A stretch of 64,000 nucleotides of DNA, taken from contig CAZYPU010000001.1 in NCBI GenBank assembly GCA_964649665.1, forward strand, positions 16,428 to 80,427, in the 5' to 3' direction. The translations under genes and the position numbers were made by a program. This document shows positions 52 to 46,600 of the stretch, piece by piece; within the stretch, counting starts at the first letter, position 1, and each line of letters begins with the position of its first letter. The notes under the pieces were generated by a model that worked only from the letters and a program-made list of their open reading frames with translations, had not been told where the DNA came from and ran no database searches. This stretch comes from an uncultured Planctomycetia bacterium (GTDB lineage: Bacteria > Omnitrophota > Gorgyraeia > JABMRN01 > RBG-13-46-9).

Positions 52-3000
52 ATGAACGACGAGAACGAAGATATAGCGTATGAGGCCATCAAAGGCACCG
101 GATGCATTTACGCGGCTATGGTAGAGAGCGGACAACCTGTTCCCATAGGAAGCATAGTGAATAAATTAATGGCAGATAGAGACAAACCGGTAGTTCCCGC
201 CAGATACGCCGCCATAGAGGCGGTTGCCGCTATATGCATAGCCATGATAAATAGAGGGATAGATCCGCCGAGGGCAGCGATATCAGGATTGGAATGGCAA
301 TTTAAAGATTCAAAATTATCCGCTTGCAATAGCAGACGTGAGGCACTATGGGCATTATGTTCGATTTATCGGGTCATGGCAGACCACGATATGGATGTGC
401 CGTTTGAAAAAATTTGCCAGTACGCAGAAAATATCTTCGCATGGGTTAATGGCAAGGAATCGGCGGCATTCAGCGCTCTTTGTGTCACTCTTATTAATAA
501 AGGGATAAACGTCCCGCACTCTATGTTTAGGAATGCCTTAAACGAAGACTGGCTATTTTTTGTTCGGGATATCCTGATGTCCCAAGAACCGGTATATGAG
601 GCTTTGTTTGAGCGCGGTGACGTGCCGTTACACGATCTGGAAGAGAGGTTACGTGACGACCTTTATATAACCCCTGATATTGCAAAACCGGCAACGGCTT
701 TCATGGGATTAGCGTATGCGGCCCTTATCCGCCAGAATAGACTATCGGAACGCGACTGGCAGATATACGAGATGTGGTTAAAGTCGAGGTTTCCCAGGAC
801 ACCATGGATCCTGGAAGAATGCCTCTCGTCACCCGATCCGCTGACATACATAACCGATCTTGCGCGCGAATCCGAACTCCTTCTAAAAAACGGTTTTGAT
901 CCGGACAACGAAAAGGCGCTCTGGCGCGTCTATGTGGGTCTAAGGAGAGCAGGCATAGATATTAACTTTGGAGGCTTAAAAGAAAATGTCGAACACCTCA
1001 TGGCTTTTGACAAAAAACATCCGGGTTATTTCGCGAACATGTTTAATAAGGCAGGGATTTTAAGCCAGATACAGATAAGCGGAAAAGGCGGAGTTATTTT
1101 AGACGCGAGCGGAGTAGATGCGGGTAAGTTGGACAAGAATCTCGCTAAGCTTAAAGGCATGAAAGAGAGAATAGACAGCTTGAGATGGCTGGAAGAGGAC
1201 TTTCCCGGAAACAAGGTATTTAATTTGAAAAATATCTATTACCTTTTAAAACGCAGAGAGGCGGAAGCGTCCGGCGCGCATAAAGGCGGAAGGTTTGTTG
1301 TCACGTACCCGTCCGAAGACGCCATGGGAGAATATATTCTTCAGAATAGCCCTCTTTATTACCGGCTTGTTTTTGAACTTGCGCTCGCGCGCATGGGCGA
1401 CGGGGTATTAGGCAAAAGATGCTTTGCCCTGGCAAGGGATCTTATTGTGAGTGAGGCTCTTTCGGATGAAATTCTGGTTGGACGGATGGGATCGGCGGAT
1501 ACAGACGTAAAAACAGAAGCGTTCAAGAACTTTTACGAGAATTATAAAAACCATCTGCCGGATTCTGCCGGTGTAAGGCTGGCGAAGATAAAAGGCATGC
1601 CCGAGGCATTTGGTGAACTGTCGGGAGAAGTATATTCGGAGATCTCTAAGGTAAAGGTGACTAAAAATAGAAGCGAGGGGGCCTACCGGCTCGTCCCGCA
1701 GGGTTTCTTGAGCGTATTTCGCGGCATAGCCGGAATCAAGGACTGCTCTTACGGGCTGCGCGAGGCCTGTCCGAGGCCTATGCATGAGGACACGCTTTAC
1801 TATTTTGTCTATAAAGGCGAAGAATTAAAGGGGTACATAGGGATGTGCGTCGGTAAGACGCGGCTTGGCAAAAAGATATTGACAATAGATACCGTGCAAT
1901 CTCCTTCGCTTGACGGCGAGGAACTGCTCGCATGCCTATTTTGGGCCCTGGACGCGCAGGCGAAAGAATTAGGCTGCGCAGGCATAGCCCTGCCGAGGGA
2001 CCTTGCCCCGTCATTCAATTTTAGCAATAAGGATACCATATCCAGGATGAAGGCATATAGCCGAGGCCGCCGGATAAGAGTTACGCCGGTTCACAGTGGA
2101 AGCTGGAAAACGATGAATGACTATTTTGGCGAGGACGAATACAATTCAATCGAAGACGGACAATTTGTCTCGTTAAATTTCAAATATTTATCGAAACCGG
2201 AATCACCGCAAGACAGCGTAATCTCAGGCGGCGCGCGTCGAAGGCACAGGCCGGTGTATTTGATGAGTCTGCCCGGCGCGGGCACGCCGGAAGGCACGGG
2301 TGTGCCCGCAGACCCGCAACCTGACAATGCTAACCCGTTTATAAAAGATGGAAAAGAGATCGCTCCTGAGCGGATAAGGCAAGCCGCGACGCTTGCAAAA
2401 GGCATTTTTCCGGATCTACGAAAAGAACAGGAGATATGGATTTTAAAAACAGCGAAAGATGTAAAACAGCTTCGCGCCCAAGGAGCGAAAATAGCCGGAT
2501 CAATAGGTTTCAGCCGGGCGGCCAGGGACCGGTACGCCGGAGCATTAAGAAATAGTTTTGCGTTTAATGTGGCTGGCATTATCTGTTTAATTCCTAGAAA
2601 CGCAGATTCTTCCGGGGGAACGGCCGTTACAGATATGATAATAGCGCACGAGACAGGTGAGACATATCTTTTTCAATTGGGAATTACGCAAGAGATGGCA
2701 GAGCTTGCTTCAGACATTATCAGAAAAGCGAACTTAAGCAAAAAAGATGAGTGGGCAGGGGGTAATTTCGCGTGCGACCTTCTGATAAACAAGATGATTC
2801 TGGATAAAGGGAAAAACCGCTTTGCAGAGCAATATAGGATATTTTTTGACGCAAGAAAAAAACACTACAAAGCCAAGCGGCCGCATTTATTCAAAAGTTA
2901 CAATTTATACCTAAGGGCTCTCGAGATAGTAGCGGATATCGAGGAGGGAACGTTCTCTGAGCCCGATGACTCTCTCGAGGAAAAAGCGCTTCTTGTCGCA

Positions 3001-6448: not shown

Positions 6449-7707
6449 ACAAAAAAATCCCATTTTTACTTATATTTATGGTCGGCTGTTTCATTACCGG
6501 CAACATGATAGGCGCCGGAATACTGGGCCTACCCATAAAAACCGGCGTGGCAGGCTTTTGGCCGTCTATGGTAGGGCTTCTTGCGCTCAGCGCGGCGCTT
6601 TTTTTCACGGCGATCGTGCTCGCAAAAGAATCAATAAAGCGCCGCCAGGAGATTTTTCACTATCCCAGCCTATACCAGGAGTATTTCGGCCACGCGGGAA
6701 AATGGGTTGCCACCCTGGCGAATCTCACCATACTCTACGGCCTTCTTACCGTGTACCTTACCGGTTCGGCGACGGTTATCGCGAGGCTTCTAAACATTCC
6801 CGTTCCGAGATTCGTGATTCTACTGGTGTTTTTCGCGATCTTTACAGGTATCACGTTCCTCAAGCCGAAGCTGCTTTTTAAGCTTAGCACTTTGTTCGTA
6901 GTGCTTTTGTGGATTTCGTTTGGCATTCTTGTAGTCATGGGGGAGAGATACGTGGACGCCTCGCGTTTTGCCTACCAGGACTGGAAAATGCTGCCGGCCG
7001 CGCTCCCGATCATAGTAATAGCGGCAAACTTCCACAACATCATACCTACTATATGCAAGAAGCTCAACTGGAATCTCAGGGATATATTGCTGGCTTTTCT
7101 TTTCGGCGCTGTTGTGGGATTTGTGATGAACGCGATATGGATCCAGATAGGCATAGGGGTGCTGCCGCTTAAAGGAGCCGGAGGTATTTTACACGCCCTT
7201 CAAAAAAGCCTCCCGGCGACCGTGCCCCTCGCAAATGCGATAAAAACGCCGCTTTTTATCCAGGCGGCGCTCATGTTCACCCTTACGGCCATTATAACCT
7301 CGTATATCTCGATAGGCCGCACCCAGATTGATTTTATCGATGATGTCATTACGAATTATACCAGAATGCCGAGAAGCGCGGCTCTCAACTTTGCGCTGGC
7401 CTTCGCTCCGCCGCTCATTATATCGCTTGTGTACCCGGATATCTTTCTTGACGCTCTCGATTTTGTCGGAGGAATAGGGAAGGTCATACTCTTTGGTATT
7501 TTCCCCTGCATACTTGCCATAAGAAGCATGCGGTCATTGGCAAAGCGCCTGTTGATTGCGGTACCGGCGCTTCTTCTCTTCTGCGTTATCCTGATATTTA
7601 AAGTCGGACAGGGATTAGGTTTGTCACATATCAAGCGGGGAGTGAACTACTGGACGAATAATTTCAGGCCCCACAACTACAAACCTCAAGACGAATTTCG
7701 AAAGTAG
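6445..7707 (+). CDS. Aromatic amino acid permease, HAAAP family (TnaB/Mtr/TyrP-like)
   Basis: The N-terminal motif GNMIGAGILGLP resembles IIGAGMFSLP of Mtr/TnaB. The protein is about 420 aa and polytopic. The ATG overlaps the MFS stop (ATGA), indicating translational coupling. The track start at 6388 is an in-frame upstream extension. Confidence 0.7.
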   Translation: MNKKIPFLLIFMVGCFITGNMIGAGILGLPIKTGVAGFWPSMVGLLALSAALFFTAIVLAKESIKRRQEIFHYPSLYQEYFGHAGKWVATLANLTILYGLLTVYLTGSATVIARLLNIPVPRFVILLVFFAIFTGITFLKPKLLFKLSTLFVVLLWISFGILVVMGERYVDASRFAYQDWKMLPAALPIIVIAANFHNIIPTICKKLNWNLRDILLAFLFGAVVGFVMNAIWIQIGIGVLPLKGAGGILHALQKSLPATVPLANAIKTPLFIQAALMFTLTAIITSYISIGRTQIDFIDDVITNYTRMPRSAALNFALAFAPPLIISLVYPDIFLDALDFVGGIGKVILFGIFPCILAIRSMRSLAKRLLIAVPALLLFCVILIFKVGQGLGLSHIKRGVNYWTNNFRPHNYKPQDEFRK

Positions 7708-11757: not shown

Positions 11758-12573
11758 ATGAAAAAGTGCGGGAAAAGAAACATATTTTACAGGCAATGGG
11801 GATGCTCTGCCCCTAAGGCCGCCCTGCTTCTGATTCACGGCCTCGGCGGACACAGTAATAACTGGGAGTACTTTTCGGACTATTTTGTCCATAACGGCAT
11901 TGCCTGTTACGCGCTTGAGCTAAAAGGCTTTGGCGAGGATGTAAAGAACCGCGTTAAGGGGCACATAGATTCGCTCGATACCTATGTAAAGGATGTTCGC
12001 CGGCTTCACCATATCATAAAAAGAGAGCACAGGGGAAAGAAGGTTTTTGTGGCCGGCGAAAGCATGGGTGGGCTCATCGCTTTCATAGCGGCGATTAAAA
12101 AGCCGGATTTGTTCAGCGGGCTTATATGCATATCGCCCGGCTTCGGAAGCCTCTTGAAATTTTCATTTCTGGATTATACAAAAATGACGCTGGCATGGCT
12201 TCATAAACCGAAAAAACAGTTTGTCATGCCGTTTGACTCCGAGATGTGCACCCGCGATCCGAAATGCCGCAAGCAGATGGATTCGGATCCGCTCGAGCAC
12301 AGGTTTGCCACGCCGGGCCTTCTCCTGAACGTATTGCTCGGCCAGATGTATTCAAGCCTCCTGAAACGTAAAGTCAGGATGCGCACGCTTTTTTTGCTCG
12401 GCGAAAAGGACACCTTCGTGTGCGGCCGGTCCAGTCGGAAGATTTTCGAGGGCCTCAAAACGAAAGATAAGCAATTAATCAAATACTCCGAAATGCGCCA
12501 CACCCTTACGGCGGAGCTCGGGAGGGAAAAAGTTTTCGGCGATGCCTTCGAATGGGTTGAAAAAAGAATATAA
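11758..12573 (+). CDS. Alpha/beta hydrolase, lysophospholipase / monoacylglycerol lipase-like
   Basis: HGLGGHS oxyanion region, GESMGG nucleophile elbow and a C-terminal His block (EMRHTL). It is a paralog of the gene at 14363. Confidence 0.8.
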   Translation: MKKCGKRNIFYRQWGCSAPKAALLLIHGLGGHSNNWEYFSDYFVHNGIACYALELKGFGEDVKNRVKGHIDSLDTYVKDVRRLHHIIKREHRGKKVFVAGESMGGLIAFIAAIKKPDLFSGLICISPGFGSLLKFSFLDYTKMTLAWLHKPKKQFVMPFDSEMCTRDPKCRKQMDSDPLEHRFATPGLLLNVLLGQMYSSLLKRKVRMRTLFLLGEKDTFVCGRSSRKIFEGLKTKDKQLIKYSEMRHTLTAELGREKVFGDAFEWVEKRI

Positions 12574-12574
12574 A

Positions 12575-14287
12575 ATGATCAACTCAATGGTAAAAACCGT
12601 TTTGCAGAACCTTACCATAAGGGATATCCTGGAGGCGATAAATAAAAAATATGGTCAAAGGCCGGCTCTCAGGGTTAAGACAAAAGATGGGCGTTTAAAA
12701 GATATTTCGTATGTCAAACTGGGACGCAGGGTAGTTACCGTCTCTTCGGCGCTTATGGAGCTCGGCGTAAAAAAAGCCGATAAAGTCGCCATACTTTCCG
12801 AGAACAGGCCCGAGTGGGCGCTCGCGTACTTCGGTATCATATCCTGCGCCGGCATAGTGGTGCCCATCGATGTCAAGCTGAGCACAAAGGAAATCCAGTT
12901 CATAATGAATGACAGCCGGGTAAAATGCGTGTTTGTGAGCGCAAAATACATCCCCGTGATAGATGAGTTGAAAACAGTCCTTCCCAATCTCGAACATATA
13001 ATCCTTTTGGACAGAGCGGGCCGCGGGGATGTAATGCTTCTGAAAAACCTGAGCCGGCACAGGGGAAAACAAAGAGGCCGTCCCGTATATCCCGACGATA
13101 CCTCGCTGATCGTATACACATCCGGCACAACGGGCGTCGCCAAGGGTGTCGAGATAAGCTACAGAAACCTCTTATTTCAGGTGCTGGCCTTCAGCGAGAT
13201 AATTCACTCGAGCCCCGACGATAACCTCCTTTCGGTTTTGCCGTTAAATCACATGCTTGAAATAACAGGCGGCCTGATAGCCCCCTTATACGGCGGCGCA
13301 TGCATTACTTACTCCGACAACCTTAAGGCCGGCACGCTTTTGCCGCTCATGAAAGAGACAAAAACCACCGTGATGATTTGCGTGCCTCTTGTATTAAAGT
13401 TGATGCACGGCGGCATCATGAAAAAAATCGCCAGGCTTTCACCGGGCAGGCGAAAGGCGTTCGGGGCGGCTCTTGCGCTTTCAAGGGCTCTTCTTAAACT
13501 CAACGTAAGGGTGGGAAAGGCGCTTTTCGCGCCCATTCACGAGGAATTCGGCGGGCACTTGCGCGGATTCATAAGCGGCGGGGCGCCGCTTGACGCTGAT
13601 GTGGAGGTAGATTTAAACGCCCTGGGCTTCAGGGTACTGCAGGGCTACGGCCTTACGGAAACCGCGCCGGTCATATCGGTCAATACTTTTAATAATAATA
13701 AATTTGCCTCCGTGGGAAAACCCCTGTCGGGAGTCGAGGTAAAGATCCTTAAAAAGAACAAATTTTCCCGCGAAGGCGAAATTATAACCCGCGGGCCGCA
13801 CGTGATGAAGGGCTACTTTAACAATCCGGAAAAGACCGCGGAGGTAATAAGGGGCGGCTGGCTCCATACCGGCGACATAGGTTATTTCGACAGGGACAAT
13901 TTCCTGTTGATATCCGGCCGGATCAAAAATTTGATCGTCCTTGGCACCGGCAAAAAAGTTTTTCCGGAAGAAGTGGAAGCCGTAATGGAGAAGAGCCCTT
14001 ACATAAAAGAGATATCGGTCCTCGGAAGAATTGCCGGGCGCGGCATCCGTAAGGGCCATGAGGAAGTTTACGCTGTTATCGTGCCCGATCTCGAGGCGTT
14101 CGGAGAAAGCGAAAGCCCCGACAGTGAAAACATAAGAAAAAAGATATCCGCGGAAGTAAGCCGCCTGGGCAGGAATTTAGCCGAGTACAAAAGGATAACG
14201 GACTTTCAGATCCGGTTTCAGGAGCTTCCGAGAACAGTAACAAAGAAAATAAAGCGAAAAGCCGTTCGCGAGATGATCAACGTTTAA
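12575..14287 (+). CDS. Long-chain fatty acid-CoA ligase (AMP-binding, FadD-like)
   Basis: AMP-binding motif YTSGTTGVAKGV, the GYGLTET motif and the C-terminal ..GDIGYFD.. block. The ATG at 12575 lies just after the upstream stop. Confidence 0.85.
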   Translation: MINSMVKTVLQNLTIRDILEAINKKYGQRPALRVKTKDGRLKDISYVKLGRRVVTVSSALMELGVKKADKVAILSENRPEWALAYFGIISCAGIVVPIDVKLSTKEIQFIMNDSRVKCVFVSAKYIPVIDELKTVLPNLEHIILLDRAGRGDVMLLKNLSRHRGKQRGRPVYPDDTSLIVYTSGTTGVAKGVEISYRNLLFQVLAFSEIIHSSPDDNLLSVLPLNHMLEITGGLIAPLYGGACITYSDNLKAGTLLPLMKETKTTVMICVPLVLKLMHGGIMKKIARLSPGRRKAFGAALALSRALLKLNVRVGKALFAPIHEEFGGHLRGFISGGAPLDADVEVDLNALGFRVLQGYGLTETAPVISVNTFNNNKFASVGKPLSGVEVKILKKNKFSREGEIITRGPHVMKGYFNNPEKTAEVIRGGWLHTGDIGYFDRDNFLLISGRIKNLIVLGTGKKVFPEEVEAVMEKSPYIKEISVLGRIAGRGIRKGHEEVYAVIVPDLEAFGESESPDSENIRKKISAEVSRLGRNLAEYKRITDFQIRFQELPRTVTKKIKRKAVREMINV

Positions 14288-14362
14288 CCGACTTGCCCTC
14301 CGAAGCGCTGCCTGTTCCGCTTGCAAAAATCCCTTTTTACAAGTATATTTAGGTAAGGGGCA

Positions 14363-15175
14363 ATGATAAAAGAACACAAAAAAACGGGCACTTTGTACAG
14401 GAAATGGGCCGCCGAGTCGCCGAAAGCGGCGCTTCTATTGGTGCACGGCCTCGGCACGCACAGCGATTCCTGGAAATTTACGGGGGATTTTTTTCTTAAA
14501 AGAAATATATCCTCTTATGCCGTGGAATTAAGGGGATTCGGGGAGACCAAAGGCCTTAAGGGGCACATAGATTCTTTCGACACCTATTATAAGGACATAA
14601 AGACGCTGCGCGAGGTAATAACAGAGGAAAACGGCAATATAAAAGTTTTCCTCGCGGGCCAGAGTATGGGCGGCGTGATCGTTTTTACCGCCTCGGCGCT
14701 CTATCCGCGCATTTTTGACGGGATCATATGCGTCGCGCCGGCTTTTACGACGAAGATTAAATTCAGCGCCATAGAACGCGCGGATATTTTCGCGTCGTTT
14801 TTTTATAACGGGAAAAAGAACTTCAACCTGCCGTTTTCCGCGGAAATGTGCACGAGGGACCCCCATCACCGAAAGACCATGGATTCCGACCACCGGGAGA
14901 TAAGGTTCGCGACATCGAACCTTCTTGTGTCAATATTCCTGGCGGGCCTGCGGGGAAGGATCTTAAAAAACAGGATCAAGCCCCCCGTATTGTTTCTTCT
15001 GGCGGGGGAGGACGCGCTGGTTTCTTCCGGGGCGTGCAGAAAGGTATTTAAGGGCCTGAAGGTAAGAGATAAAACGCTGATAGAGTATCCCGGCATGTAC
15101 CACGCCCTGAACGTAGAGCTGGGCCGCGAGAAGGTTTTTGAGGATATCTTTAAATGGATAAAACATCGGTCGTGA
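14363..15175 (+). CDS. Alpha/beta hydrolase, lysophospholipase-like (paralog of 11758..12573)
   Basis: HGLGTHS, GQSMGG and the same C-terminal motif layout (HALNVELGREKVFEDIFKWI versus HTLTAELGREKVFGDAFEWV). Confidence 0.8.
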   Translation: MIKEHKKTGTLYRKWAAESPKAALLLVHGLGTHSDSWKFTGDFFLKRNISSYAVELRGFGETKGLKGHIDSFDTYYKDIKTLREVITEENGNIKVFLAGQSMGGVIVFTASALYPRIFDGIICVAPAFTTKIKFSAIERADIFASFFYNGKKNFNLPFSAEMCTRDPHHRKTMDSDHREIRFATSNLLVSIFLAGLRGRILKNRIKPPVLFLLAGEDALVSSGACRKVFKGLKVRDKTLIEYPGMYHALNVELGREKVFEDIFKWIKHRS

Positions 15176-15990
15176 GGAAGTATCTATATTTCAGCCTGTT
15201 TTTTTGCGCGATAATCTGCTTATGCACAAGCGTTGTTACCGCCCGGGCGCTCGCGGAGCCGGTAAAGGGCGCGCTTCTGACAGAGGACGGGGTTTCGATC
15301 GCGTACGAGCGGTACAAAAACGGGTTTGAAAAAGTAATTATAATATGCCCGGGTTTCTACAACAGCAAGAAAAACAGGTGGATGCGCAAAACCGCGGATT
15401 TTATATCTTCCAGGTATGACGTTATAATCTTTGACCCGAGGGGCCACGGCGAAAGCGGCGGGAAATTTACCTGGTCAGCCAAAGAGCACTGCGATCTGAA
15501 CGCCGTTATTGATTACGCGATAGCCGAAGGGTACGGGGCCGTGGGGGTGGTGGCTTTTTCCCTCGGAGCGGCCTCGGCTATTAATGCTGCCTCGGGCAGG
15601 GGCGATATAGACAGCATGGTATTGATAAGCGCCCCGTCGAGTTTCAGGATGGTCAACTTCCACTTCTGGGAGCCGGGAATGCTCTCGGACCTGAAAGACA
15701 ATATAGACTGTAAATGGGAAGGTAAGGGCGCGAGGTTCGGCAGTATCTTTACGCCGAAGGACAGGCCCATAGACACGATAGGCCTGATAAAGACCACACC
15801 GATGCTTTTTATACACGGTGACAGGGACTGGCTCATTAAGGACCGCCATTCCAGGAAGCTTTATCGGGCGGCGCGGGTTTATAAAAAAATAGAAATAATC
15901 AAAAACGGGCTTCACGCGGAGAGGATTATCCAGTTTAATCCCGATAAGATAAAGAAACTTATACTCGAGTGGTTTTCGGAAACGCTTTAA
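15154..15990 (+). CDS. Secreted alpha/beta hydrolase
   Basis: Signal peptide. The hydrolase fold shows HGESGG and AFSLGAA (a GxSxG variant), then a DRD..H block. Confidence 0.65.
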   Translation: MDKTSVVRKYLYFSLFFCAIICLCTSVVTARALAEPVKGALLTEDGVSIAYERYKNGFEKVIIICPGFYNSKKNRWMRKTADFISSRYDVIIFDPRGHGESGGKFTWSAKEHCDLNAVIDYAIAEGYGAVGVVAFSLGAASAINAASGRGDIDSMVLISAPSSFRMVNFHFWEPGMLSDLKDNIDCKWEGKGARFGSIFTPKDRPIDTIGLIKTTPMLFIHGDRDWLIKDRHSRKLYRAARVYKKIEIIKNGLHAERIIQFNPDKIKKLILEWFSETL

Positions 15991-21215: not shown

Positions 21216-21977
21216 ATGAGCAAGGATAAAGGCGAAAAGGGCTTGAATCCCGTCTACATAGAGGCGCTTGATCTTGATGACGCCTGGTTCCGGTGCCTGT
21301 CGGAAATACTGCGGCACGGTTATGTTTACAAGATTGACCGGGGAAGCTACGCGGGACAAAAGCGCCTTGAGTTTGATTTCATAACGGTCCGCGTCAAAAA
21401 CCCCGCCCATCAGATAATTCCCCTCATACCGGAAGGTTCCGGGATACCCGCCCCCACCGACATGAACTACATACAGCAGTATCTCTCGTATCTTCTCACG
21501 AGCCAGAAGACCAAGACCGAAGATTATACCTACGGCGAACGTCTGGTGGACCCGAAGGCAAAAATCGAAACGGAAGTTGACGGCAAAAAAATGGTTAAAG
21601 ATATGCCGCTCAAGTGCAATCAGGTGGAGGAGGTCATAAAGATTTACAAGACCCAGGGATTCGGGACCAACCAGGCTGTCATGGAAATAGGCATGCCATC
21701 GGACATAATGCTCGAGGACCCGCCGTGCCTGCGCATAATAGATACGCGCGTGCGCTACGGAAAACTGCATTTTTTCCTGTACTTCCGCTCCTGGGATCTC
21801 TGGGGAGGTTTTCCTTCGAATCTCGGCGGGCTTGAACTTGTGAAGCAATACATGGCGGACGAGATAGGGGTGGGAAACGGCGAAATCGTGGCGTGCTCCA
21901 AAGGGCTTCACCTCTACGAATACGCCTGGGAACTAGCCAAACAGAGAACCCATAAATACGACCTGGAAATAAAATGA
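21216..21977 (+). CDS. Thymidylate synthase family protein (ThyA fold, short archaeal-like type with a P-C-L active-site triad)
   Basis: EDPPCLRIIDTRV (nucleophile Cys), GKLHFFLYFRSWDLWGGFPSNLGGLELV (the RSxD..G.P.N block), and CSKGLHLYEY (the D.H.Y block). Confidence 0.6.
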   Translation: MSKDKGEKGLNPVYIEALDLDDAWFRCLSEILRHGYVYKIDRGSYAGQKRLEFDFITVRVKNPAHQIIPLIPEGSGIPAPTDMNYIQQYLSYLLTSQKTKTEDYTYGERLVDPKAKIETEVDGKKMVKDMPLKCNQVEEVIKIYKTQGFGTNQAVMEIGMPSDIMLEDPPCLRIIDTRVRYGKLHFFLYFRSWDLWGGFPSNLGGLELVKQYMADEIGVGNGEIVACSKGLHLYEYAWELAKQRTHKYDLEIK

Positions 21978-21991: not shown

Positions 21992-23002
21992 ATGCAAAAA
22001 GTAAGATATGAAATCGACCCACATAACAGGCTTGTTATCAAAGATACCGGCCGAAAAACCCGCCTTCACGCCTTCAGAAGATCCCTGGACGGCAAATTCA
22101 AGATAGGCAAAAACAATACGCTGACCTACCGCGTAAAGGCCCCGATGCCCCGCGACGCGAATATTCCGCATCAGGTTAAATTAAGGGGAAAATGGTCGCT
22201 AAACAAGCGCCGCGATTTAATATTGACCCTCGATAAATGGGGCAGGCAGACCTTCGGCGACAGGCTGACGCTTACGGGGAACATAATAGGCGTAAATAAA
22301 GACGCGCTTCTTTTTGCCGTTTCCACCCGGACCAAAGAAGGCACCCGCTCGACTTACTGCCTGAAACTCAGCGGTTCGTGGCGGGCCGACCGGCATAACC
22401 GCCTTACGTTCAGGGTAAAAAAAGAGCGCGGAAGGCACGACATTCTAATCCTTGACGGGATATGGGAGATAGGCAAAAACCATCAAATTATATATCGCTA
22501 TGAAAAAGCCCGCCTCATACGTAAATCGAAAAAAATACATACTCTGAACTTTAAGGGGCACTGGGACATTAAGGGCAAAGCGCGAATTTCGTACGTTTTC
22601 GAAGGAAATACGGGCCCGAGTTTTGATTTCAGAACCGGCGCGGGCCTCTTCCGGGAAAACTATATAAAATACGAAATAGGCATAGGCCTCTCGCGGAGAG
22701 CCGGGCCCGCCAGGCGGATAGTCGCCCTTTTCGGCAGATGGAAAATAAACAGAAGAAAAGAGTTAATGTTCGAAGTAAAATATGAAAACGGAAAAATTCA
22801 CGCCATCGCTTTCAGCGCGGACATAAAAATAACGGATAAAGACACGATATTATTCAGGCTCAGGGCCAATAGCGGCAGGGATATAAGCGCGAATCTGAAA
22901 CTTTCCCGCAGTATGTTAGGGGGAAGCGCCGAGGCATTCGCGCGGGCGCTTAAATCGAAGCGGGAGTCCGCCGTTTATGCCGGCGCGGCTCTTGAATGGT
23001 AA
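21992..23002 (+). CDS. Hypothetical basic beta-rich protein with internal ~45-aa repeats
   Basis: Repeating L-x-G-x-W-x-[IL]-x-K blocks. No family recognised. Confidence 0.45.
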   Translation: MQKVRYEIDPHNRLVIKDTGRKTRLHAFRRSLDGKFKIGKNNTLTYRVKAPMPRDANIPHQVKLRGKWSLNKRRDLILTLDKWGRQTFGDRLTLTGNIIGVNKDALLFAVSTRTKEGTRSTYCLKLSGSWRADRHNRLTFRVKKERGRHDILILDGIWEIGKNHQIIYRYEKARLIRKSKKIHTLNFKGHWDIKGKARISYVFEGNTGPSFDFRTGAGLFRENYIKYEIGIGLSRRAGPARRIVALFGRWKINRRKELMFEVKYENGKIHAIAFSADIKITDKDTILFRLRANSGRDISANLKLSRSMLGGSAEAFARALKSKRESAVYAGAALEW

Positions 23003-24316: not shown

Positions 24317-24589
24317 ATGGCGCAGATAAAGATTGAAAAATTGCCGGAAGAAAAACTTAAAAAAATGGGCGTTTTTTCATGGCCCGTATGGGAAAAGGAA
24401 GTATCGCGCTTTGATTGGCATTACAATGATACCGAAATGTGCTATATCATTGAGGGAAAAGTAAGCGTGGAAACGGAGCCCGGAAAGGGCGTGAGCTTCG
24501 GCCCGGGAGATTTTGTTACATTTCCGAAAGGCCTGAAGTGCGTCTGGGACATAAAGGAGCCTGTTAAGAAGCATTACAACTTTAAATAA
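24317..24589 (+). CDS. Cupin domain protein (cupin_3/DUF861-like)
   Basis: GVFSWPVWEKEVSRFDWHYNDTEMCYIIEGKVSV...GDFVTFPKGLKCVWDIKEPVKKHY. Confidence 0.7.
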   Translation: MAQIKIEKLPEEKLKKMGVFSWPVWEKEVSRFDWHYNDTEMCYIIEGKVSVETEPGKGVSFGPGDFVTFPKGLKCVWDIKEPVKKHYNFK

Positions 24590-25599
24590 TGAAAAAGCCG
24601 TACATAACCCTGAAATTCGCCCAGACGCTGGACGGTAAAATTGCCGCGCCCGACGGCTCATCGAAGTGGATAAGCGGCCCGCAGGCGCGAAAATTCGCCC
24701 ACGGATTACGCGCAAAAAATGACGCCGTTCTTGTCGGGATAAGAACTATCCTGCGTGACAACCCCGCCCTTACCGTCCGCCTTGTAAAGGGGGGAAACCC
24801 CGCCAGGGTCGTTATTGACCGCAGGCTTCGCGTGCCGCTTGAGGCGCGCGTTGTGAAAGAAGCTAACCTCGCGAAAACAATTATTATTACTACGCCAAAA
24901 GCCCCGGAAAGCAAGATGAAACGGCTTAAAGCGGCGGGTGTCGAAATTATAGTTTTACCGGCCTCAAAAGGAGGGTATATTGACTTACACAGGATTATCC
25001 GTATACTCTATAAGAAGGGAATCAGGAGGATGCTTGTTGAAGGCGGCGCTCGCGTTATCGCCTCTTTCCTGAAAGCGCGCCTCGCGGATAGGATCATAAC
25101 GGTTATATCACCCAGGATTCTGGGAAGGGGCGTGGAAAGCGCGGGGGACATGGGTATCGGGAATATAAAAAATGCCGTTAAGTTACGAATAAAAAACGTA
25201 AAGCGCCTCGGTAAAGACATAATTTACACCTCGGCGGGCTTTACCCTTTTTGAAATAATGGTAGTTATTCTTATCGTCGGCTTCCTCGCGATGATAGCCA
25301 TACCCAATTACATGCAGGCCCGCCTTAAGACACAAGAGGAGTTGTGCCTCGCAAACCAGAAAGCGATCTTTGTCGCGGCCGCGGGATATGTTTTAAATGA
25401 GGCGGATTCCCTGGCGGCGATGAGTAATGACGAGCGTCTTGACGCACTTGTGGAGAGGGGATACCTTAGAAGCGCGGAATGGCAGGGATGCCCCTCGGCC
25501 CCCGGCGGAAACGGCAAGGATTATACCCTGGTATTCGACGGCGATGCTATTACCGACGTGGAGTGCGACATAAAAGGCGGCCAGCACCAGTGGCCGTAA
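24589..25599 (+). CDS. RibD C-terminal-type reductase domain (5-amino-6-ribosylamino-uracil reductase-like), in frame with a complete type IV pilin/pseudopilin-like domain
   Basis: Residues 1-215 have the RibD_C/DHFR-like pattern (LKFAQTLDGKIA ... LVEGGARV ... RLGKDIIY). This is followed directly by GFTLFEIMVVILIVGFLAMIAIPNY (a prepilin N-terminal methylation motif with E5) and a C-terminal Cys pair. Confidence 0.6.
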   Translation: MKKPYITLKFAQTLDGKIAAPDGSSKWISGPQARKFAHGLRAKNDAVLVGIRTILRDNPALTVRLVKGGNPARVVIDRRLRVPLEARVVKEANLAKTIIITTPKAPESKMKRLKAAGVEIIVLPASKGGYIDLHRIIRILYKKGIRRMLVEGGARVIASFLKARLADRIITVISPRILGRGVESAGDMGIGNIKNAVKLRIKNVKRLGKDIIYTSAGFTLFEIMVVILIVGFLAMIAIPNYMQARLKTQEELCLANQKAIFVAAAGYVLNEADSLAAMSNDERLDALVERGYLRSAEWQGCPSAPGGNGKDYTLVFDGDAITDVECDIKGGQHQWP

Positions 25600-32656: not shown

Positions 32657-32848
32657 ATGGGTAAAACTTTAAGTATTGCAATGGGCGCTCTGGCAGCGTT
32701 CGTAGGGCTCGTCCTTCTCATAGCCTGGTGGTATGAATTTCTTTTTATGCTGAGAGCCGCTGTTCCGGTCCTGCTTATAGCCGGCGGACTTATCGCGCTT
32801 TTTGCCGGGTTCAGCGAGTTCAGGGATACGCTGAAAAGCCGGAAATAG
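32657..32848 (+). CDS. Small two-TM membrane protein
   Basis: 63 aa ORF with upstream purine-rich RBS-like sequence (AAGGCGGGG). Two hydrophobic helices. Confidence 0.4.
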   Translation: MGKTLSIAMGALAAFVGLVLLIAWWYEFLFMLRAAVPVLLIAGGLIALFAGFSEFRDTLKSRK

Positions 32849-37681: not shown

Positions 37682-40600
37682 ATGGGTCAAAATAAAAGCA
37701 TAATATTTAAGGCTATATGTTTCTCCCTTGTAATCACGTTTTGCTTTGAGAACATTCTCTGGGCGAACCCGGAAGCTTTTAAAAAGAATGTCTCAAATGG
37801 CACCCTTCAGGTCCAGTCCAAAATTAACCCCATCGCCACTCCTGAGCTTCTTCATCAGGGGCTTATAGAGTTCTCGCTTAGATACATCGTTCAGGCCGTA
37901 GATGATATCGCGAACATCAATTTCCCCCTAACGCCGGAGGCCCCGCATTACGCCAAAGACATAAAAATCGTCCTTGATTTCAGCCCGCCGACTGAAAATA
38001 AAAAAGAGGGTAAACATAAAGAAGGCGACAACTGGATAGTGCCCTGCACTATTTTTGACAGCCGCGGCCGCTATTTCTGGACGTACGAGGCGGTTATACA
38101 TCCGGATAAAAGTATCTCGTGGAAGAAAAAGATATCCGCGGAATCCGCCATCGTTCCCGAACCCCAACCCCCCGCGCCTCCGGTCGAAGAACCAACCCTA
38201 GCCCCGCAGGCTTCAAGGCCCTTACCTAACCCAAGTGCCTTCCGGGATTTACACCGTAGCGAGGAGGGTGCGCGGTGGCCGTTCGGAAAACGTCAACTCG
38301 CAACCCAAGACCCGAGAAGAGATTCGGACAGGGTGGAACATGCCCTTGGGAAAACGAGGCAAAGATATGAATTAACACAGGTTATGGATAGAATCGTGCA
38401 GGGCGTAAAAGAAAAATTCGGATCAGGATTCGTATTAGCCATAGACGGGCAAAAAGCAACACGCAAAACGACACTTTCAGAAATAATGTCAAAAGGCATT
38501 AGCGATATATCGTCCGGAGACATAGAAGTGCTTAGTTACACAAAAGGTATGTATGAACGGGAAAGAGATTATATGAGAGTTGTCAAAAGGGCCTTACGCG
38601 AGAAGAAGTTAGTTGTTTGCGAGGGGCAGAGCATGGTGCAGATTCTGGAAGAAGGAAACATCTTTCCGGATTTAATCCTTTACCATAAAGCCAACTTAAT
38701 GACGCAATTATATTCCAGTTTTCTTAGGTCCTTTTTATTATCAAAGGCTTACAGGGAACGTATGTTAGATGACGAGAAAAAAGGCCTTTCATTATTGTTG
38801 ACGCTTTGCGATTGGGCGCCGTTCGGACTAATATTCTTTATATGGGAAGTTTATAAAATATTCACAGAAAAAAAATCCGATAAGGAAACGCTTAATGAGT
38901 TGTCAAAAAGGCCTAACTGCGTTACGCTGAATTTCAGTACTTATAAGTTGGGCGGATTAACAATAGAAGATGTATATGGAATCATGACAAGCGTGGCAGA
39001 TTCGGCTAGTTATCCGTCCGTTGCCACAGTCGAACATGGTCTGATAAGCGAGGTCCCGGGTGCGCCTCTTACAGCCGAGGATTACGTCAGGCAAAAAGAA
39101 AAAGAGGGAGCTGAATTTATTCTCCTCTACAGCAGGGAAGGGCGCCTGGTGCGTTGCATGTCGATAAAAGAAGCCAAATACGCCGCCGGAAATATGGAGA
39201 TAGCGGGTATTGCCCTGAGAATCAAGGAGGGAGAGACACAGTTCTTTGAGGCTGGCCGAACCGACTTTGAGACCGGGAAAATCGTAGAGTCGCTGGACTA
39301 CACCGCGGAGATGAAAGAGCCGAAAAAGGTCTATTTCGTAGTACCGATGCACAAGGAAATGAAGCGGCTCCTTCCGGAAACGAAAGACAACCCTTATGGC
39401 GAGGACGCGTTGCGGAAAACGGTATGGCAGCTTCAGGAAGGAAGCAGAATAAACAGGCGTTTCAAATGGCAGCTTATCCTGGTAGATGACGGCACTCCCG
39501 GAAACGCCTCAGCAAAGCTTGCGGAAAAACTTTGGGCCGAAATTCAGGAAGAATATGCGTCCTGGGGAGAAACGCTTGATCCATCGCAGGTTATAATCGA
39601 AAAAATTACGCCTCGGGAAAAAAAGAAAATGAAAAGCCGAAAGGGAGGCGCCGTTCTCCGCGGGTTTAATATTGCCCTGAAAAGCGCATCGCCCGGCGAT
39701 TACATAGGATATACGGACCTGGACATCTCAACCGATATGCGCCAGACAGGGTTTCTATTAAAAGCGCTGGCCGAAGGTGATGCGGAGGTGGCCATAGGTT
39801 CCCGCTGGGCAAAAGGCGGAAAGGGAGAAAAAGTCCCTCCTTCAGGCATAGTATCAAGCAAGGTCTACAACCTTTTGGTCCAAACACTTATGCCGCCTTT
39901 ACGCGGTATTCAGGATACGCAGCGCAGCTTCAAGCTTTTTACAAAGCGCGCGGCAGAAGAAATCTTACGTCACGCCAAAGATAACGGCTTTGCCTTTGAC
40001 ACGGAGCTCCTGCTTTTGGCGAAGCTCTTGAGTTATCGGACAAGTGAGGTCCCAATCGCCTGGATTGATTCGCCCGGGGCCACTACTCTGAGCATGTTTA
40101 CCGACGGGCCAAAGATGGTTTGGAGCCTGTTTAGACAGCGCAGACACATGTTCGGGAAGATGTTCCGCTCCTCGTACATCATGACCCGGTCAGGCGCCAC
40201 AAGCGGTTCCGGCGAAGGGGAACGTCCCCTTGGGCTTATCGGGAAGTGGATGCTGACGCCGGAAGCTAAATTTAAAGAGGACCACCCGGGATGCCGCGCC
40301 GGGGATATAACGTTCATGGCCAGGCGCATAGATTATCCCGAGAGGGATGAGATTGAGATAAAGCTTCGGGCGAGGTGCGTGCCGTTCACGGAGTTTGATA
40401 ATTTCCGGAGGACAGGTGTGGAGGAAATCGATAGCGCGCTGAAAGAATTCCTCTACGCTTTCACATCACTTAAGGTCAAAGGCGTGACGCTTTACATGGA
40501 ACCCAACCGGTACGGCATATACGGCATAGGCACAAAGGACATTATTGCCGTAAGAGGCCCTCTCAGGTTCAGTAAAATTGCCAAAACCCATGAAATAATG

Positions 40601-43600
40601 CATGCGGCCCTTGACGCGGGCGCGCTGACCCTCAAAACAGTGATAGACAACATAAAAGGCGGCGAAAAGGCGCTGAATGAATATATAGGAAAAAATCCGC
40701 GCAGGCAGGTGCCCGGCATGCGGGCTCATTATGCCCTCCGCCTTCTTTTTAGGCAGAGAAATCCAATAAGAGACAAACTTCTTACGAGGTTTTTAAAAAT
40801 TATCCAGCCCGTAAGGGATTTTCTTGACATCCGGCTGTTCGGCGGCTTGAGCTTAGCAGGGCGTGCGGGAATCCTGGCGGTATTCGCGTATGTCCTTGAG
40901 AGTTACGTAGGAACAAATCGATGGCTTTTGCTCTCGGTCATCGCGGTATCTTCGATTATATTAGTGGATGTATGGTATTCTTTATGGGAAAAATGGGAAA
41001 AAACCGGTGAACTTATAAACGGTCTCTTGGGCACGCGAAAAGGGCACGAAACTTTAACGGCAGAAGTAAACGAGATCGTGTTTGATCGGTATCCGGGACG
41101 ACGGTGGATTCCTGGTAATGTGAAAGAAGCGTTGAAGCTTGATGATCCATCGGCGGATACGACATACATAATAGCGAGTTTTAAAAAGAGTAATGTTCCC
41201 ATTGGGTACCTCGCCTTTACGGCCAAATCAACAGACGCGGCGATTACATGCGTGAATCTTTGGATTAATGAAAAACACCGGCACAAGGGTATAGCCCTGA
41301 AGCTATTGGAAAGATTTTTGGAGGAGGCGGAACGCAGGCAGAAAAAAAGCGCAATATTTAGATTGAAAAAAAACGAGGGCATCAATCTGGATGTCGTAAC
41401 AGGGCTTCTGAAGGCCGCCGCGGCTTTGCGGGGAGCGAGGATTGCGATTGTCCCAACAAGTTACGGTCGGCTGATACGCATATGGTTGTATAAATCAAGG
41501 CCGCGGACGCAACTTCTTTCAGCGGCGCTGCCTTTGTCCCTACTGGCCATAGAAGCCGCGAAGGAAGAGCCGATTATCATAAAGCCGTGGATGGAGGCCG
41601 CGTTTATGGCAGGTTTTGCTTTTCTATGCTTGTGTGAAATTATCCGGAAGTATTGGGATGCGATCAAAGAAAACAGGGCGGTTGGATACGCGATTGAAAG
41701 ATTCGCCAATTTGATCAAATGGCTTGATGACTTTTTACCGATCGTATTTTTAGCCGCTATTTTGAGCTTTGTGCCGTGTCCGAAAGTAAGTCCATCCGCG
41801 CATGCCGCCATGGTGACACAACCGCCCGCCGCGGCGGGGGTTGTTAATACCTTGCCAGTTGCAGCGCAAGTAGGCGCGGCCGATATTTCGTCAACGCTGC
41901 TAGACTTCATATCGACACCTGTGTCAATCGGGTTAATGATAGGACTGATTTTTGCTATCTTATGCATGATGTACAGAAAAGTGGCGGCCGCTCTGTTTAA
42001 CAACACGTGCGTATATATAAAAGAGATGCTGGGAGATAAGTATATTAGGTTCTGGGCGCGTTTTCAGGAAGACCGCGAGGCGCTCGAACGGCTTTTTGCA
42101 GAGTCAAGAAAGACCGCGCAGAAATATTCGTCATCGCCGCAAGATAGCGTGGAATTTTATGCCATAGAATGTTACCTTATAGCGCGTCGGAAGGGCAAAG
42201 TCAAGTATATACACTTTTCACAAGAACTGGCCAAAGCGTTTCGTAGAGATCGTCGATTTATCGGGCGGTCTATCGCATGGTACAGATTCAGGGTGCGACT
42301 TAAGTCCCTTTGGGCGCGGATATTGCTTAAAGGTGAAGGATTGGCCGGCGACGGGCTCGAGGATCTGCAAAAAAGTATAAGATACTGCGAATCATTATTA
42401 AGGTTGGACACGTTGATTTACAAAAATAGGGAACAATACGCACGGCAAATATTCGACGCAATAATTAATAACCCCGAGCGTTTCCCGGGCATCAAAGAAG
42501 TTCCCGATCCGGATGATCCCGGAACGCACATGTTGGTGTACGAATCTCCGAATAGTTCCGGCGTAAGAAATCCCAAAGACGGTTTTATAAAACCGCTTTT
42601 AATACCCACTTTAACCGGTATCGCCGCGCCGGCGGCGGGGGCGGTATTAGCGGCTCCCTACTTTGCGGAAATTCCCACATATATTAGTGACATTTTAAAC
42701 TGGTTTGCCTCTATCGGCGCGGGTGGCGCACTTTCGTGGAAGACAATAGCTATATTAGTTACCTTTGTCCCGCTTTTCATTTCCATCGTATCCGCTGTTA
42801 AAGGGGAATCGTTGTCAGGAAAATACCGGGGTATCTGGCGGGAAAGGCTTGAAAAAGCCCTGAGGAAGCACTCGAAACTTAACAAAGACGGCGTAATTCC
42901 GGATCTCGCGACACTTTTGAGTATCCGACACAAATTATTTAGATCAGAAAGAGCAAGCGGCAGTCTTTTGGCAATTTTGCAGGCATATCAAGATTTGCTA
43001 TCCGGCGGAATTATCAAAAAACCGAAATTCGCGCCTTTACACATTTTCGTCCTTCGTGACTTGGGTTTCGTCACTGACGAATTGTGGGCGGAATATGAAG
43101 TGTATATAACCTCAAAGAACAATGATGAAATCAGTGAACCACGGATAAAACTGTGGCATTCTTTGGTGCGGGCGGTTCTTAAAAAAGAAGATATGCTGGG
43201 TAAAGACGGAACTATCGACGATGTAAAAAAGCTGGAGGGCATCAAACCGGACTTCTTTACATCCAGAAAAGGGCGGGCTGGAATCAACGAGGTATACGAA
43301 GCCTTTCAGCGCGCGGCCAAAAAGAAAAACATTCCATATAGGTACGCGCACAAAAGAAAATTCGTATTATATGTGCTTAGGATTCTGGGTTTTTTGACGG
43401 ATGAGATGTGTGGGATAGTCGAGAATATTGATTTCACATTTCCATCGGACAAATTAAAGAAAAAATACCACGCCGCATTGGCGCCGGTGTTACGAAAAAA
43501 GGATATTTTGAACGAGAAGGGGAAAGTGCGGGACATTGATGCTCTTTTACGTGTCAACGTTAAATTATTCCGGGCGCGTAAGGAAGAAGGGAAGGGCGTC

Positions 43601-46600
43601 AGTTTATACAGTATTTTTATTAGCTATCAGAAAAAAGCGAGACTCAGCAGGATAAAGAAGCCGAAGCACGCGACATGGCCTTGCTTTATCCTGTATAGTT
43701 TGGGGTTCGTAACTGATGAAGTATGGAAAGGTTATTTATCCTACCGCAGGAAATTACTGCTAAAAAGAGAGACACGGGCTGCTGAAAGGCAATCTAAACC
43801 GGTGCCCTTTCCCGCTTCATTCAATGTAACGCAGGCGCAGTTATCGGGTGTCCGAAAAGCGCTCGAAAAAATACACGTCCTTGACGAAAAAGGCATGATA
43901 AAATCGCTCGGCGCATTTGATAGTATAACCAGGCAGTCAATTGTTGAAGGCGGAGGCGGCCCCGCGTACGGCATTTTTAAATCAGGCATACAAAGGACAG
44001 AGCAGGCGCTGCCCGGAGGAACGGACTTGTGTCACTATATGCTTTATCACCTGGGCTTTGTAAGCGAGGCTGTGTGGCTGGAATACACACAATATCTGAA
44101 GATAAAAGAAGCGCTGAAAAAAGTCAACATGCTCAACCGCCGGGGCAAAATCCGCGATATCACCGCTCTTCTACGCGTAAATGCAACGTTTTTAAGCAAT
44201 CAGGGCATCTTAGGCGTATACCTATCCTACGTAAGAGCGCATTATGAGTTTAAGCGGGATACGCCTAAAGGCATAAAATTACACTATTACGCGCTATATC
44301 GCCTCGGGTTAGTTACCGAAGAATTATTGCGCGAATACAAATGGTATATCCGGCTGGAGAAGGCGTTACGGACAAGGTTAAAACTTGACCAAAACGGGAA
44401 AATTCGCGACCACGCGACCCTTTTAAGCATAAATACGAATTTCCTTGAAAAAGAAGGCCTTTTGGAAGGATACAGGCTTTATATGGAAGCCCATCCCGAA
44501 CTTGCCAAAGAAACACCCGAAGGCACGGAACCCCATCATTACCTTCTACGCCATTTAGGGTTATTTGCCAAGGCGCTATTCACGCAGGAGAGCGAGGGAT
44601 ACGCACAGCTTAAAAACGCGCTTAAGGAGAGCGAAAAGCTTACCCCCGAAGGCGAAGTCCGCGACCTCAAGGCTCTTTTAAGCATAAACATAGAGTTTTT
44701 CGAAAAGAAAAAAGTTCTTGAAGCCTATCAATCCTGTCTGAAAACCGTCGCCGAAGAATTACCGGAAGGCGCAGAGGGCTGTCATTACGTCTTATACAGT
44801 TTAGGGCTTGTTTCGGGCAACCTCTGGACCGAATACACATGGTACTGCCGCCTGAAAAAGGCGCTCAAAGGCGCCGGGAAGCTCAGCCCCGAAGGCATTA
44901 TTAAAAACCTCACCAGCCTGCGCGGCATAGACTACGCATTTTTTAATGAGCATGGCATTGTGAGAATATCGCAATTCTATACACGCCGGTATCCCGGATT
45001 CTGGAGAGGGATTCCGCGCGGCGCGGATGGGTGGCGCTATCTTTTATACAATCTCGGGTTCGTTGACGATGAGTTGTGGCAAAACTATCTATGGTATGCG
45101 AAGATAAGCGTCACGCTTAAAGCGGCCGGAAAACTCGATAAGCAGGGAGCAATCAGGGACATAAACACCCTTTCAAACATCGGCGCAGCGTTTTTTAAAG
45201 AACACGACATCTCGGGCATATACCAGGCATATTTAGAAGAAAACCCTGATTTTATTCAAAGCGTGCCGGAAGGGGTGGAACCGCGGCATTATTTTTTGTT
45301 TATTTTAGATTTCATGCCGGACAAATTCTTGCGCGAATACAAATGCTGCAGCGAGATGAAAAGAGCGTTAGAAAAAGCCGGAAAACTGAATAAGGCAGGG
45401 GAGATTCCCGATTTGGCGACGCTGCTCGGCATGAATAAAAAATTCTTCTCTGAAATTGGCGCATTACCTGCATACGAGGCATACCTTGAGTTTTACCCCG
45501 AGCTTGAGCATCATGCGCCTGAGAAGGAGTCCGCGGAGTGCGATGCGCTTCACCGGATGGGGTTTGTTTCAAAAGAGCTCTATCAGAAATACATGCTGCA
45601 CCTCAAGGTAAAACAAATTTTGAAAAACTCCGGAAAACTCGACAAAACGGGTAAATTCCGAGATATAGACAGCTTCTTGAGCGTAAACTCTGGTTTCTTA
45701 AGGGAACATAAAATCTTAAACAGTGCCGACGCTTTTTTCAGGAAAAACCCGGAACTGATGAAGAAAATGCTCGCCACTGCGGACATATCCCACTGTTTCC
45801 TGTATTGTTTAGGTCTTGTTTCCGAAGAACTTTGGAATAAGTACGAAACGCGTTGCCCGTTCAAAGCGGTGCTGTGGAAAGAAAGGCTCCTTGATTCGCA
45901 CAGAAGAATTCGCGATTATGACGCACTGTTTAGTATAAACGCCGCGTTTTTGAAGAAGCACGGACTGCTAAGCTTATATCAATCTTACGTACAAGAGCAT
46001 CCGGGTTTTGCTGAAAAACTGCCGGAGGGAGCGAATCCGCGACACTATTTCCTGTACCGGATGTACCGGATGGGGCTTGTGTCTGACGAGGTATGGAACG
46101 GATACATAAAGTGCGTGACCACGCCGGAGTTTCTTAAGCTAAACGACGAGAAGCGAATGTGGTATGTTACACGCCGCTATTGTCTTGAGGCCGCGCGGAT
46201 AATAAGGCCGGGAGAGATTATACAGGAGGCCGCGATCCTCTTAAACATAAGGGAACCGGTTTTTCGCCGCAAAAAAACAAAAGAGACGTGGCGTGAAGCG
46301 ACGAGATATTACAGCAGGCAATGGGAAGAAGGGCTATTGGGAAAATTTGAGCTCGAAAACCTTGATATATATATACTAAAGGACCTGGGACTTGCGACAG
46401 CGTCATCATGGGATGAGTATCTTGCCTATTCTGCCCGGGAGAGAGCGGCGCGGATTGAGAAATCCGCTATGACTGCGAGGGGAAGCGTTCTTAACAGAAT
46501 CAAAGGCCTGGCTGTGGATATCCAAAAAGCTATCGAGGAAGGCGATATCGCTTCCGCGGCGGCCGCCCTTGATATGATCGATAAGCTGTGTGAAGGACAT

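Follow-up and report, generated by a model that had tools for sequence, protein, structure and literature searches.

Background

Can a complete enzyme stand where a type IV prepilin carries its short leader peptide? The question is raised by one gene in a 64,000-nucleotide (nt) stretch of contig CAZYPU010000001.1, from an uncultured Omnitrophota bacterium; this whole stretch is called the window below. The gene is an ATG-initiated open reading frame (ORF) whose product of 336 amino acids (aa), ended by a TAA stop, consists of a RibD_C reductase domain (residues 4-212), three linker residues, the prepilin-type motif G217|FTLFE, a hydrophobic helix of 23 residues and a pilin head of ~96 aa (Table 1). 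It is a riboflavin-pathway reductase gene joined to the neighbouring pilin gene, and it belongs to a small uncultured group of Omnitrophota. A first inspection of the DNA without database searches (the sequence-only reading) had left three explanations side by side: a genuine fusion, a pilin gene with a non-canonical start, and an undetected indel.

Fused orthologues in independent assemblies

The gene is a real, inherited fusion in a monophyletic Omnitrophota group. Three contigs from independent assemblies, one from ENA and two from JGI, encode an identical protein, and five further full-length fusions were found (P0002-P0006; 335-343 aa, 71-77% identical at 100% query coverage), the fused orthologues coming from NCBI, JGI, ENA and Logan assemblies. 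All six fused genes have the junction D-[IVM]-[IV]-Y-T-[AST]-[AGS]-G|F-T-[LIV]-F-E-I, and none of the six contains a stop or a frameshift. Programmed frameshifting or readthrough was dropped as an explanation, the ORF being continuous in 6/6.

An indel introduced by sequencing or assembly, with the genes in truth separate, or a recent pseudogene at a decaying locus, would fit the separate genes of close relatives, but this explanation is barely credible. Against it stand the three independent assemblies of the same fused protein, the same in-frame junction in five diverged orthologues from different assemblers and samples, and the ratio of nonsynonymous to synonymous substitution rates (dN/dS), which is 0.13-0.22 over a dS of ~1.2, with stops or frameshifts in 0/6. 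The genuine fusion considered in the sequence-only reading is thus upheld by six orthologous genes with one junction, by independent assemblies and by purifying selection on both halves; the undetected indel is rejected as an artefact, and in its place there is a real, ancient deletion, by which the fused locus has a net 17 nt less than sister genomes. A stop and a start between the two domains, which the same reading had named as a sign against a fusion, do occur in sister lineages, where they reflect the ancestry of the fusion and not a sequence error.

Origin from two adjacent genes

The next-closest RibD_C proteins are 219 aa long, ~60-72% identical over the reductase part, and end in …DIIYIAYIS[KR]. 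In sister Omnitrophota the 219-aa ribD_C gene is followed by a pilin gene of 123-131 aa whose start overlaps or closely follows the ribD_C stop. This two-gene arrangement is present in the complete 1.43-Mb Omnitrophota genome CP070780.1 (locus L004) and in locus L006; the small gene after ribD lacks a Pfam label in both and is the pilin. In L006 it reads MKEG|FTLTEIMIVV…HVWP and its ATG overlaps the ribD TGA (ATGA), and in L004 it reads MNRGLSIKTNRG|LTFFELL…. The genes further downstream in these two loci are largely those of the fused locus (PEBP in L004 only, glycosylase, radical SAM enzyme, exchanger, MgtC). Five further species representatives (L012-L016) also have separate ribD_C and pilin genes, with the leaders MSKG|F, MITKKSG|F, …KRAG|F, MNLRSAYHKNPQTA|F and MTEKKINAG|F; leaders of the unfused orthologues span about 4 to 14 residues.

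When the junction DNA is aligned, L006 and L012 have a net 17 nt more than the six fused genes. Gone with these are the final four codons of ribD and its stop, together with the start and leader of the pilin; because 17 is 2 modulo 3 and the pilin frame lies at +2 relative to ribD, the loss joined the two frames. Where the ancestor had the ribD C-terminal end IAYIS[KR], a stop codon, and the Met and leader of the pilin, there are now only residues T214-S215-A216. A neighbour-joining tree of the RibD_C part alone groups the fused genes as monophyletic in 199/200 bootstraps, and upstream of fused ribD lies a DUF900 gene, with a cupin gene in 4/6, both absent from the unfused loci. One clade with shared upstream synteny argues for one ancient fusion event. 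Fusions of this kind are limited to one small, uncultured Omnitrophota clade, and none of 73 other RibD_C loci outside this Omnitrophota subclade has a same-strand pilin beside ribD.

The start region of the L004 pilin (6651-6700) contains a 24-nt tandem duplication (ATCAAGA[T/C]GAACAGAGGACTTA[G/C]T), which doubles the leader and cleavage context (MNRGL-SIKTNRG|L). The region of stop/start overlap would therefore seem prone to small rearrangements.

The reductase half

The reductase half matches Pfam RibD_C (PF01872) with 191 bits against a cut-off of 24.1 (E 2.4e-56, profile positions 1-196 of 197) and TIGR00227 (ribD_Cterm) with 199 bits against 150, and with both matches above their cut-offs the initial description of the first ~215 residues as a RibD_C-like reductase holds. 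The equivalog models are borderline: TIGR01508 scores 156.7 bits (cut-off 186) and TIGR00326 157.3 bits (cut-off 156.35). The domain aligns end-to-end with the M. jannaschii reductase 2AZN (residues 2-212 of 219, E 4.6e-37), and B. subtilis RibG 2B3Z is matched as well (E 3e-35). Across fused and unfused RibD_C orthologues 70 columns are invariant, the EGG motif among them. Judged by these matches, the half is a member of the RibD_C pyrimidine reductases, with NADPH-dependent ribosylamino-pyrimidine reduction as its predicted activity.

Compared with stand-alone RibD_C reductases (PF01872/TIGR00227, 2AZN, and the 219-aa 'RibD family protein' of Omnitrophota), the domain is matched here in full length; it is 72% identical to the 219-aa proteins of sister Omnitrophota and retains all family-invariant residues. 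Unlike them, the fused protein has a pilin extension of 120 residues in place of the last four residues and the stop codon, and if uncleaved the enzyme would be tethered to the membrane.

The pilin half

The sequence across the junction reads …DIIYTSAGFTLFE…. It has the features of a class III signal, namely G at -1, hydrophobic residues at 218-240 and Glu at +5, and it is matched by Pfam N_methyl (PF07963) at residues 215-238 (21.3 bits, cut-off 21.2) and by TIGR02532 at residues 216-238 (21.1 bits, cut-off 16.3), while the PilA, ComGC and GspG models match in part over residues 216-290. The textbook prepilin methylation motif noticed in frame at first inspection is thereby borne out by two models above cut-off. 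It is the single match for a pilin motif of the G|F...E type in a six-frame translation of the whole window. What is absent is the usual placement near the N-terminus, in which the protein's start codon opens a hydrophilic leader of 6-26 aa and the motif comes next: here the motif begins at residue 217, whereas in the unfused orthologues it does have the usual placement.

Taken by itself as the query of a word-indexed search, the pilin half retrieved nothing, its own protein included; as this was uninformative, phmmer was used instead. Run exhaustively over 1.84 billion representatives, it returned 3707 relatives, the best of which are stand-alone pilins of ~120-135 aa whose Gly lies at position 5-20. 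Among the top 150 representatives examined, only the fused cluster has an enzyme in front of the pilin, and no second enzyme-pilin fusion was found among the top 150 representatives with the pilin domain. Candidates for an internal pilin were set aside: P0126, P0135, P0145 and P0150 look like over-extended gene calls with extensions of ~30-70 residues (an internal Met lies shortly before the motif in P0126, P0145 and P0150, with no obvious Met in P0135), and P0234, P0243 and P0250 look like mis-called ORFs across two pilin genes in high-GC DNA. P0167, P0203, P0224 and P0245 were likewise rejected as enzyme-pilin fusions, the head domain being used there without a GFxxxE motif.

The last four proteins (531-599 aa) have a Sec-type N-terminal signal, a long unknown domain and two copies of the pilin head (…C.ANQK…GYL…P.DPG…C..HG…), in tandem near the C-terminus in three of them and near each end in P0224. 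One head copy in this group is preceded by a hydrophobic 'AIAIPNF' segment that lacks GFxxxE. These copies suggest that the pilin head has been reused in non-pilin contexts.

A profile of the family matches the alpha1 helix of solved pilins (Geobacter PilA-N, Myxococcus PilA, Neisseria PilE and GspG) with E 1e-13 to 1e-8, and that of Thermus PilA as well. Modelled by AlphaFold2 (AF2) with 28 family members, residues 208-336 form a lollipop (mean confidence, pLDDT, 92.7) whose parts are a 55-residue helix (positions 9-63 of the model), a beta-hairpin and two further, short helices. The whole fusion, modelled from a 14-row alignment, reached pLDDT 50, which is of no use for placing RibD_C relative to the helix. 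Foldseek returned nothing significant for the head among PDB structures, the best being C. difficile PilJ (4ixj, E 1.4).

In 28 diverse members of the pilin family Glu+5, Gln257, C253, C301 and C326 are invariant and H333 nearly so. The globular region of ~100 aa with a Cys pair that had been described at first inspection therefore stands as to the head, of ~96 aa, with three conserved cysteines instead of two. The odd number of cysteines together with the His suggests either a Cys3His metal site or one disulfide with a free thiol.

Start codons around the junction

No ATG, GTG or TTG occurs in frame in the 28 codons before G217, the nearest being the ATG at codon -29 (M188), and none occurs in any frame across the 60 nt upstream of the cleavage site. 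This agrees with the sequence-only reading, which had reported their absence just upstream and had offered in-frame ATA/ATT codons as candidate starts for a 7-aa leader, IIYTSAG; these are indeed found, at codons -6 and -5. In the six fused genes this pair reads ATA/ATT, ATA/ATC, ATA/ATT, GTG/GTT, GTA/ATT and ATG/ATT, and it encodes I/V/M in the final strand of RibD_C, which the unfused genes do too.

Internal initiation would produce a conventional prepilin from codons -6/-5, or from Met188 with a basic leader of 30 aa, and would leave the full-length chain as a by-product. An ATG, GTG or ATH codon does stand at -6/-5 in every fused gene (ATG in P0006, GTG in P0002, ATA/ATT in the others), an ATG stands at -29 in 5/6 and at -24 in the sixth, and a start at -29 would give a Lys/Arg-rich leader of ~30 aa that resembles those of long-leader pilins. 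We nevertheless regard this explanation as quite unlikely. The candidate codons encode the last strand and the GD[ML]GI motif equally in unfused ribD_C, the ATG at -29 being present also in unfused L006 and L016; P0004 has GTA-ATT at -6/-5, so that no start is conserved there; and ATA, ATC and ATT are very poor initiators. Neither a conserved internal start codon nor a conserved Shine-Dalgarno-like motif was found among the six fused genes, such a motif at workable spacing being conserved before no candidate. Moreover, every translation of ribD would still give the full-length chain bearing the cleavage motif. The non-canonical pilin start put forward at first inspection is accordingly unsupported.

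Selection on the two halves

Rates were estimated by the method of Nei and Gojobori for the fused genes, for 7 unfused orthologues and for the 3 closest of the unfused. For the RibD_C domain the median dN/dS is 0.13 in the fused genes, 0.17 in the 7 unfused and 0.18 in the 3 closest; for the mature pilin the corresponding values are 0.22, 0.18 and 0.28, all of them approximate among the fused genes, where dS of ~1.2 is near saturation. The ratio of dN in the pilin to dN in RibD_C, which is independent of dS, has a median of 1.73 in the fused genes, 1.73 in the 7 unfused and 2.14 in the 3 closest. The unchanged dN ratio indicates that constraint on the pilin was not relaxed after the loss of its own start. 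By these rates, both halves have been under purifying selection since the fusion, and appear to have been kept functional.

The length of the mature pilin is 118-123 aa in the fused and 119-121 aa in the unfused proteins. G-1, F+1, T+2, F+4, E+5 and I+6 are invariant in 6/6, with about half of the other transmembrane columns invariant; as statistical evidence this is weak, for with half of the transmembrane columns invariant, G, F and E would all be so by chance about 1 time in 8 in a set of six sequences.

Predicted processing of the fused product

If the 336-aa product is synthesised as a single chain, every translation of ribD would now necessarily yield the full chain. Its alpha1N segment (218-240) could then act as an internal signal-anchor with N-in insertion, so that RibD_C would remain cytoplasmic and the pilin head would be periplasmic, the topology of any prepilin, and prepilin peptidase could cut the bond that follows G217 on the membrane's cytoplasmic face. 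We consider such insertion and cleavage, with the enzyme as a giant leader, to be on balance probable. The products would be a soluble reductase of 217 aa (219 in the ancestor) and a mature pilin of 119 aa (119-121 in the ancestors) beginning with Phe1 and carrying Glu5. The enzyme would thus stand in for the leader peptide, and the fusion would behave as a polyprotein with two products. The fuller proposal, to which we give slightly less than even weight, is a natural polyprotein of prepilin peptidase, in which a folded, essential RibD_C domain of 217 aa serves as the prepilin leader and a single cut releases a soluble reductase and an assembly-competent pilin. Because cleavage would restore both products, the deletion would have been nearly neutral, and this would account both for its fixation and for the unchanged constraint on the pilin.

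In ordinary prepilins alpha1N spans the membrane with the head outside, the leader is cytoplasmic, the active site of the peptidase lies at the cytoplasmic membrane face, and the Gly at -1 alone is absolutely critical (PMC10191384; PMC4471445). Type 4a pilus genes occur in nearly all Omnitrophota classes (PMC10066038), and a prepilin peptidase is therefore probably present.

Several points weigh against cleavage, in addition to the near-saturated dS and the weak statistics of the motif columns given above. Only T-S-A lies between the last beta-strand of the RibD_C fold and the scissile bond; since this linker is short and RibD_C aligns end-to-end with 2AZN, access of the membrane-embedded peptidase may be sterically hindered, which is our main doubt. 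Known leaders are hydrophilic and 6-26 aa long (PMC4471445), and literature searches gave no precedent for a large folded domain upstream of a prepilin cleavage site. Genes for prepilin peptidase or pilus assembly were absent from the scanned ORFs of the 64-kb window, a scan that left out the 3897-aa ORF.

Were the near-absent linker to block the peptidase, the product would stay a bitopic membrane protein, with alpha1N as a mere anchor, the reductase tethered to the inner membrane face and a small periplasmic Cys3/His domain attached; we think this unlikely. The invariant C253, C301 and C326 and the near-invariant H333 would suit a metal or redox site better than a purely structural subunit. 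That the two ancestral partners have become one membrane protein through a functional link of the 'Rosetta-stone' kind is similarly improbable: ribD_C and pilin are adjacent with coupled translation in at least 7 unfused Omnitrophota species, which could mean such a link, but the operon consists of tightly packed, unrelated housekeeping genes, so that adjacency is weak evidence for it. Scaled to RibD_C, the rate of evolution of the whole pilin is also that of free pilins, and G-1, F+1 and E+5 are retained, although drift would be expected of a charged Glu and a filament-type alpha1 in a mere anchor. An unprocessed prepilin is unable to enter the filament (PMC10191384), so that without cleavage the ancestral pilin function would be lost, yet constraint is unchanged.

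Comparison with known systems

Taken by their family matches, both halves are ordinary members of known families; it is the architecture that appears new, and it breaks the rule of an N-terminal, short leader in prepilins. The fusion resembles ordinary type IV pilins in its G|F-T-L-x-E motif, ~21 hydrophobic residues, long alpha1 and small head. It differs in the position of the motif (residue 217, against ~5-26), in the absence of a start codon and a hydrophilic leader of its own, where a complete folded enzyme stands instead, and in a head with three Cys and a His and a single beta-hairpin, which has no significant match among solved structures.

Modular type IV pilins, such as Streptococcus sanguinis PilB and PilC, combine a pilin module with an unrelated functional domain in one polypeptide. 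Their extra module is at the C-terminal, extracellular end and is carried along with the pilus; the fusion has the reverse arrangement, its extra domain preceding the cleavage motif.

Closest by analogy is mitochondrial GspG, found in heteroloboseans and jakobids, a pseudopilin with a polar anchor and Glu+5 behind a long N-terminal extension, of ~160 residues in Naegleria (PMC8134430). As in the fusion, a complete pseudopilin follows a long extension on the matrix or cytoplasmic side, but that extension is a targeting sequence and not a folded enzyme, and there is no GspO homologue there (PMC8134430). Long-leader pilins (type IVb, Flp, S. sanguinis PilE) attest to a flexible length of the leader and to a peptidase whose main requirement is the Gly at -1 (PMC10191384; PMC4471445). 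Their leaders are nonetheless unstructured, hydrophilic and 6-26 aa long, or about 15-30 for type IVb (PMC4471445), against 217 folded residues in the fusion.

The mechanism of prepilin recognition is still poorly understood (PMC10191384), and cleavage of the fusion would bear on it as a natural experiment on what the peptidase tolerates: length, hydrophilicity and disorder of the leader would be dispensable, and a Gly-Phe…Glu5 context next to the membrane would suffice. The substrates of class III signal peptidases would then extend from leaders of ~6-26 residues to whole domains, and the class III signal could act as an internal signal-anchor. If it is not cleaved, the product would be a riboflavin enzyme tethered to the membrane and bearing a Cys3/His domain in the periplasm, odd and of narrower interest. 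The locus also offers a clean, datable case in which translationally coupled, overlapping genes became one ORF through a small deletion and were kept by selection.

The pilin half of the fused genes is invisible in current annotation, and software that searches for the motif near the N-terminus alone misses such genes. The precomputed Pfam column gives PF01872 alone for all six fused proteins (P0001-P0006), and P0003, which alone among them has an NCBI name, is called 'bifunctional … deaminase/… reductase' there, yet the deaminase domain is absent.

Features of the locus and other genes in the window

Table 1 Features of the fused gene, in positions of the window
Feature	Position	Strand	Evidence
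Whole fused ORF	24589..25599	+	ATG to TAA; identical protein on 3 contigs, five fused orthologues
RibD_C (DHFR-like) pyrimidine reductase domain, residues 4-212	24598..25224	+	Pfam E 2.4e-56; TIGR00227 199 bits
Junction residues T214-S215-A216, between last RibD_C strand (DIIY213) and -1 Gly	25228..25236	+	
G217, -1 glycine of the prepilin-peptidase-type cleavage motif	25237..25239	+	invariant in 6/6 fused genes
alpha1N hydrophobic segment, residues 218-240 (FTLFEIMVVILIVGFLAMIAIPN), with F218 (+1, from 25240) and E222 (+5, 25252-25254)	25240..25308	+	predicted signal-anchor and transmembrane helix
Rest of alpha1 and small pilin head, residues 241-336	25309..25596	+	AF2 model, conservation
C253, family-invariant	25345-25347	+	
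C301, family-invariant	25489-25491	+	
C326, family-invariant	25564-25566	+	
H333 (H.WP), near-invariant	25585-25587	+	

The fused ORF lies in a compact co-directional run with the order DUF900 hydrolase, cupin, fused ORF, PEBP, HhH-GPD glycosylase, radical SAM enzyme, Na/Ca exchanger, MgtC, HAD and GH65; the cupin gene before it ends in a TAA whose last base is also the first of the fused ORF's ATG (TAATG at 24587-24591). Upstream of the fusion are a ThyA-like gene (21216-21977, + strand), with a weak and partial thymidylate synthase match (residues 130-245, E 6e-9), and adjoining it a Lys/Arg-rich ORF of 336 aa without a significant Pfam family (21992-23002, + strand), an arrangement that is kept in most loci of the fused clade.

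Three giant ORFs are found on the + strand, at 37682-50536 (4284 aa), 50634-62327 (3897 aa) and 52-4992 (1646 aa), and resemble the 'big ORFs' described for Omnitrophota (PMC10066038). The 4284-aa ORF has three stretches of RidA/L-PSP endoribonuclease type near its C-terminus (about 3918-4013, E 3.7e-29) and a weak GNAT match; the 1646-aa ORF has no Pfam match. A small protein of 63 aa with two transmembrane segments (32657-32848, + strand) carries the precomputed Pfam label MamI, a magnetosome protein, and a syntenic copy of 72 aa is present in L006. The label is doubtful, our own hmmscan having given no family at E <= 0.001, and no other mam-like genes were seen alongside it. At 11758-15990 (+ strand), an AMP-binding (acyl-CoA ligase-like) gene is flanked by three alpha/beta-hydrolase (Hydrolase_4) genes, and part of this cluster is found upstream in L009 as well.

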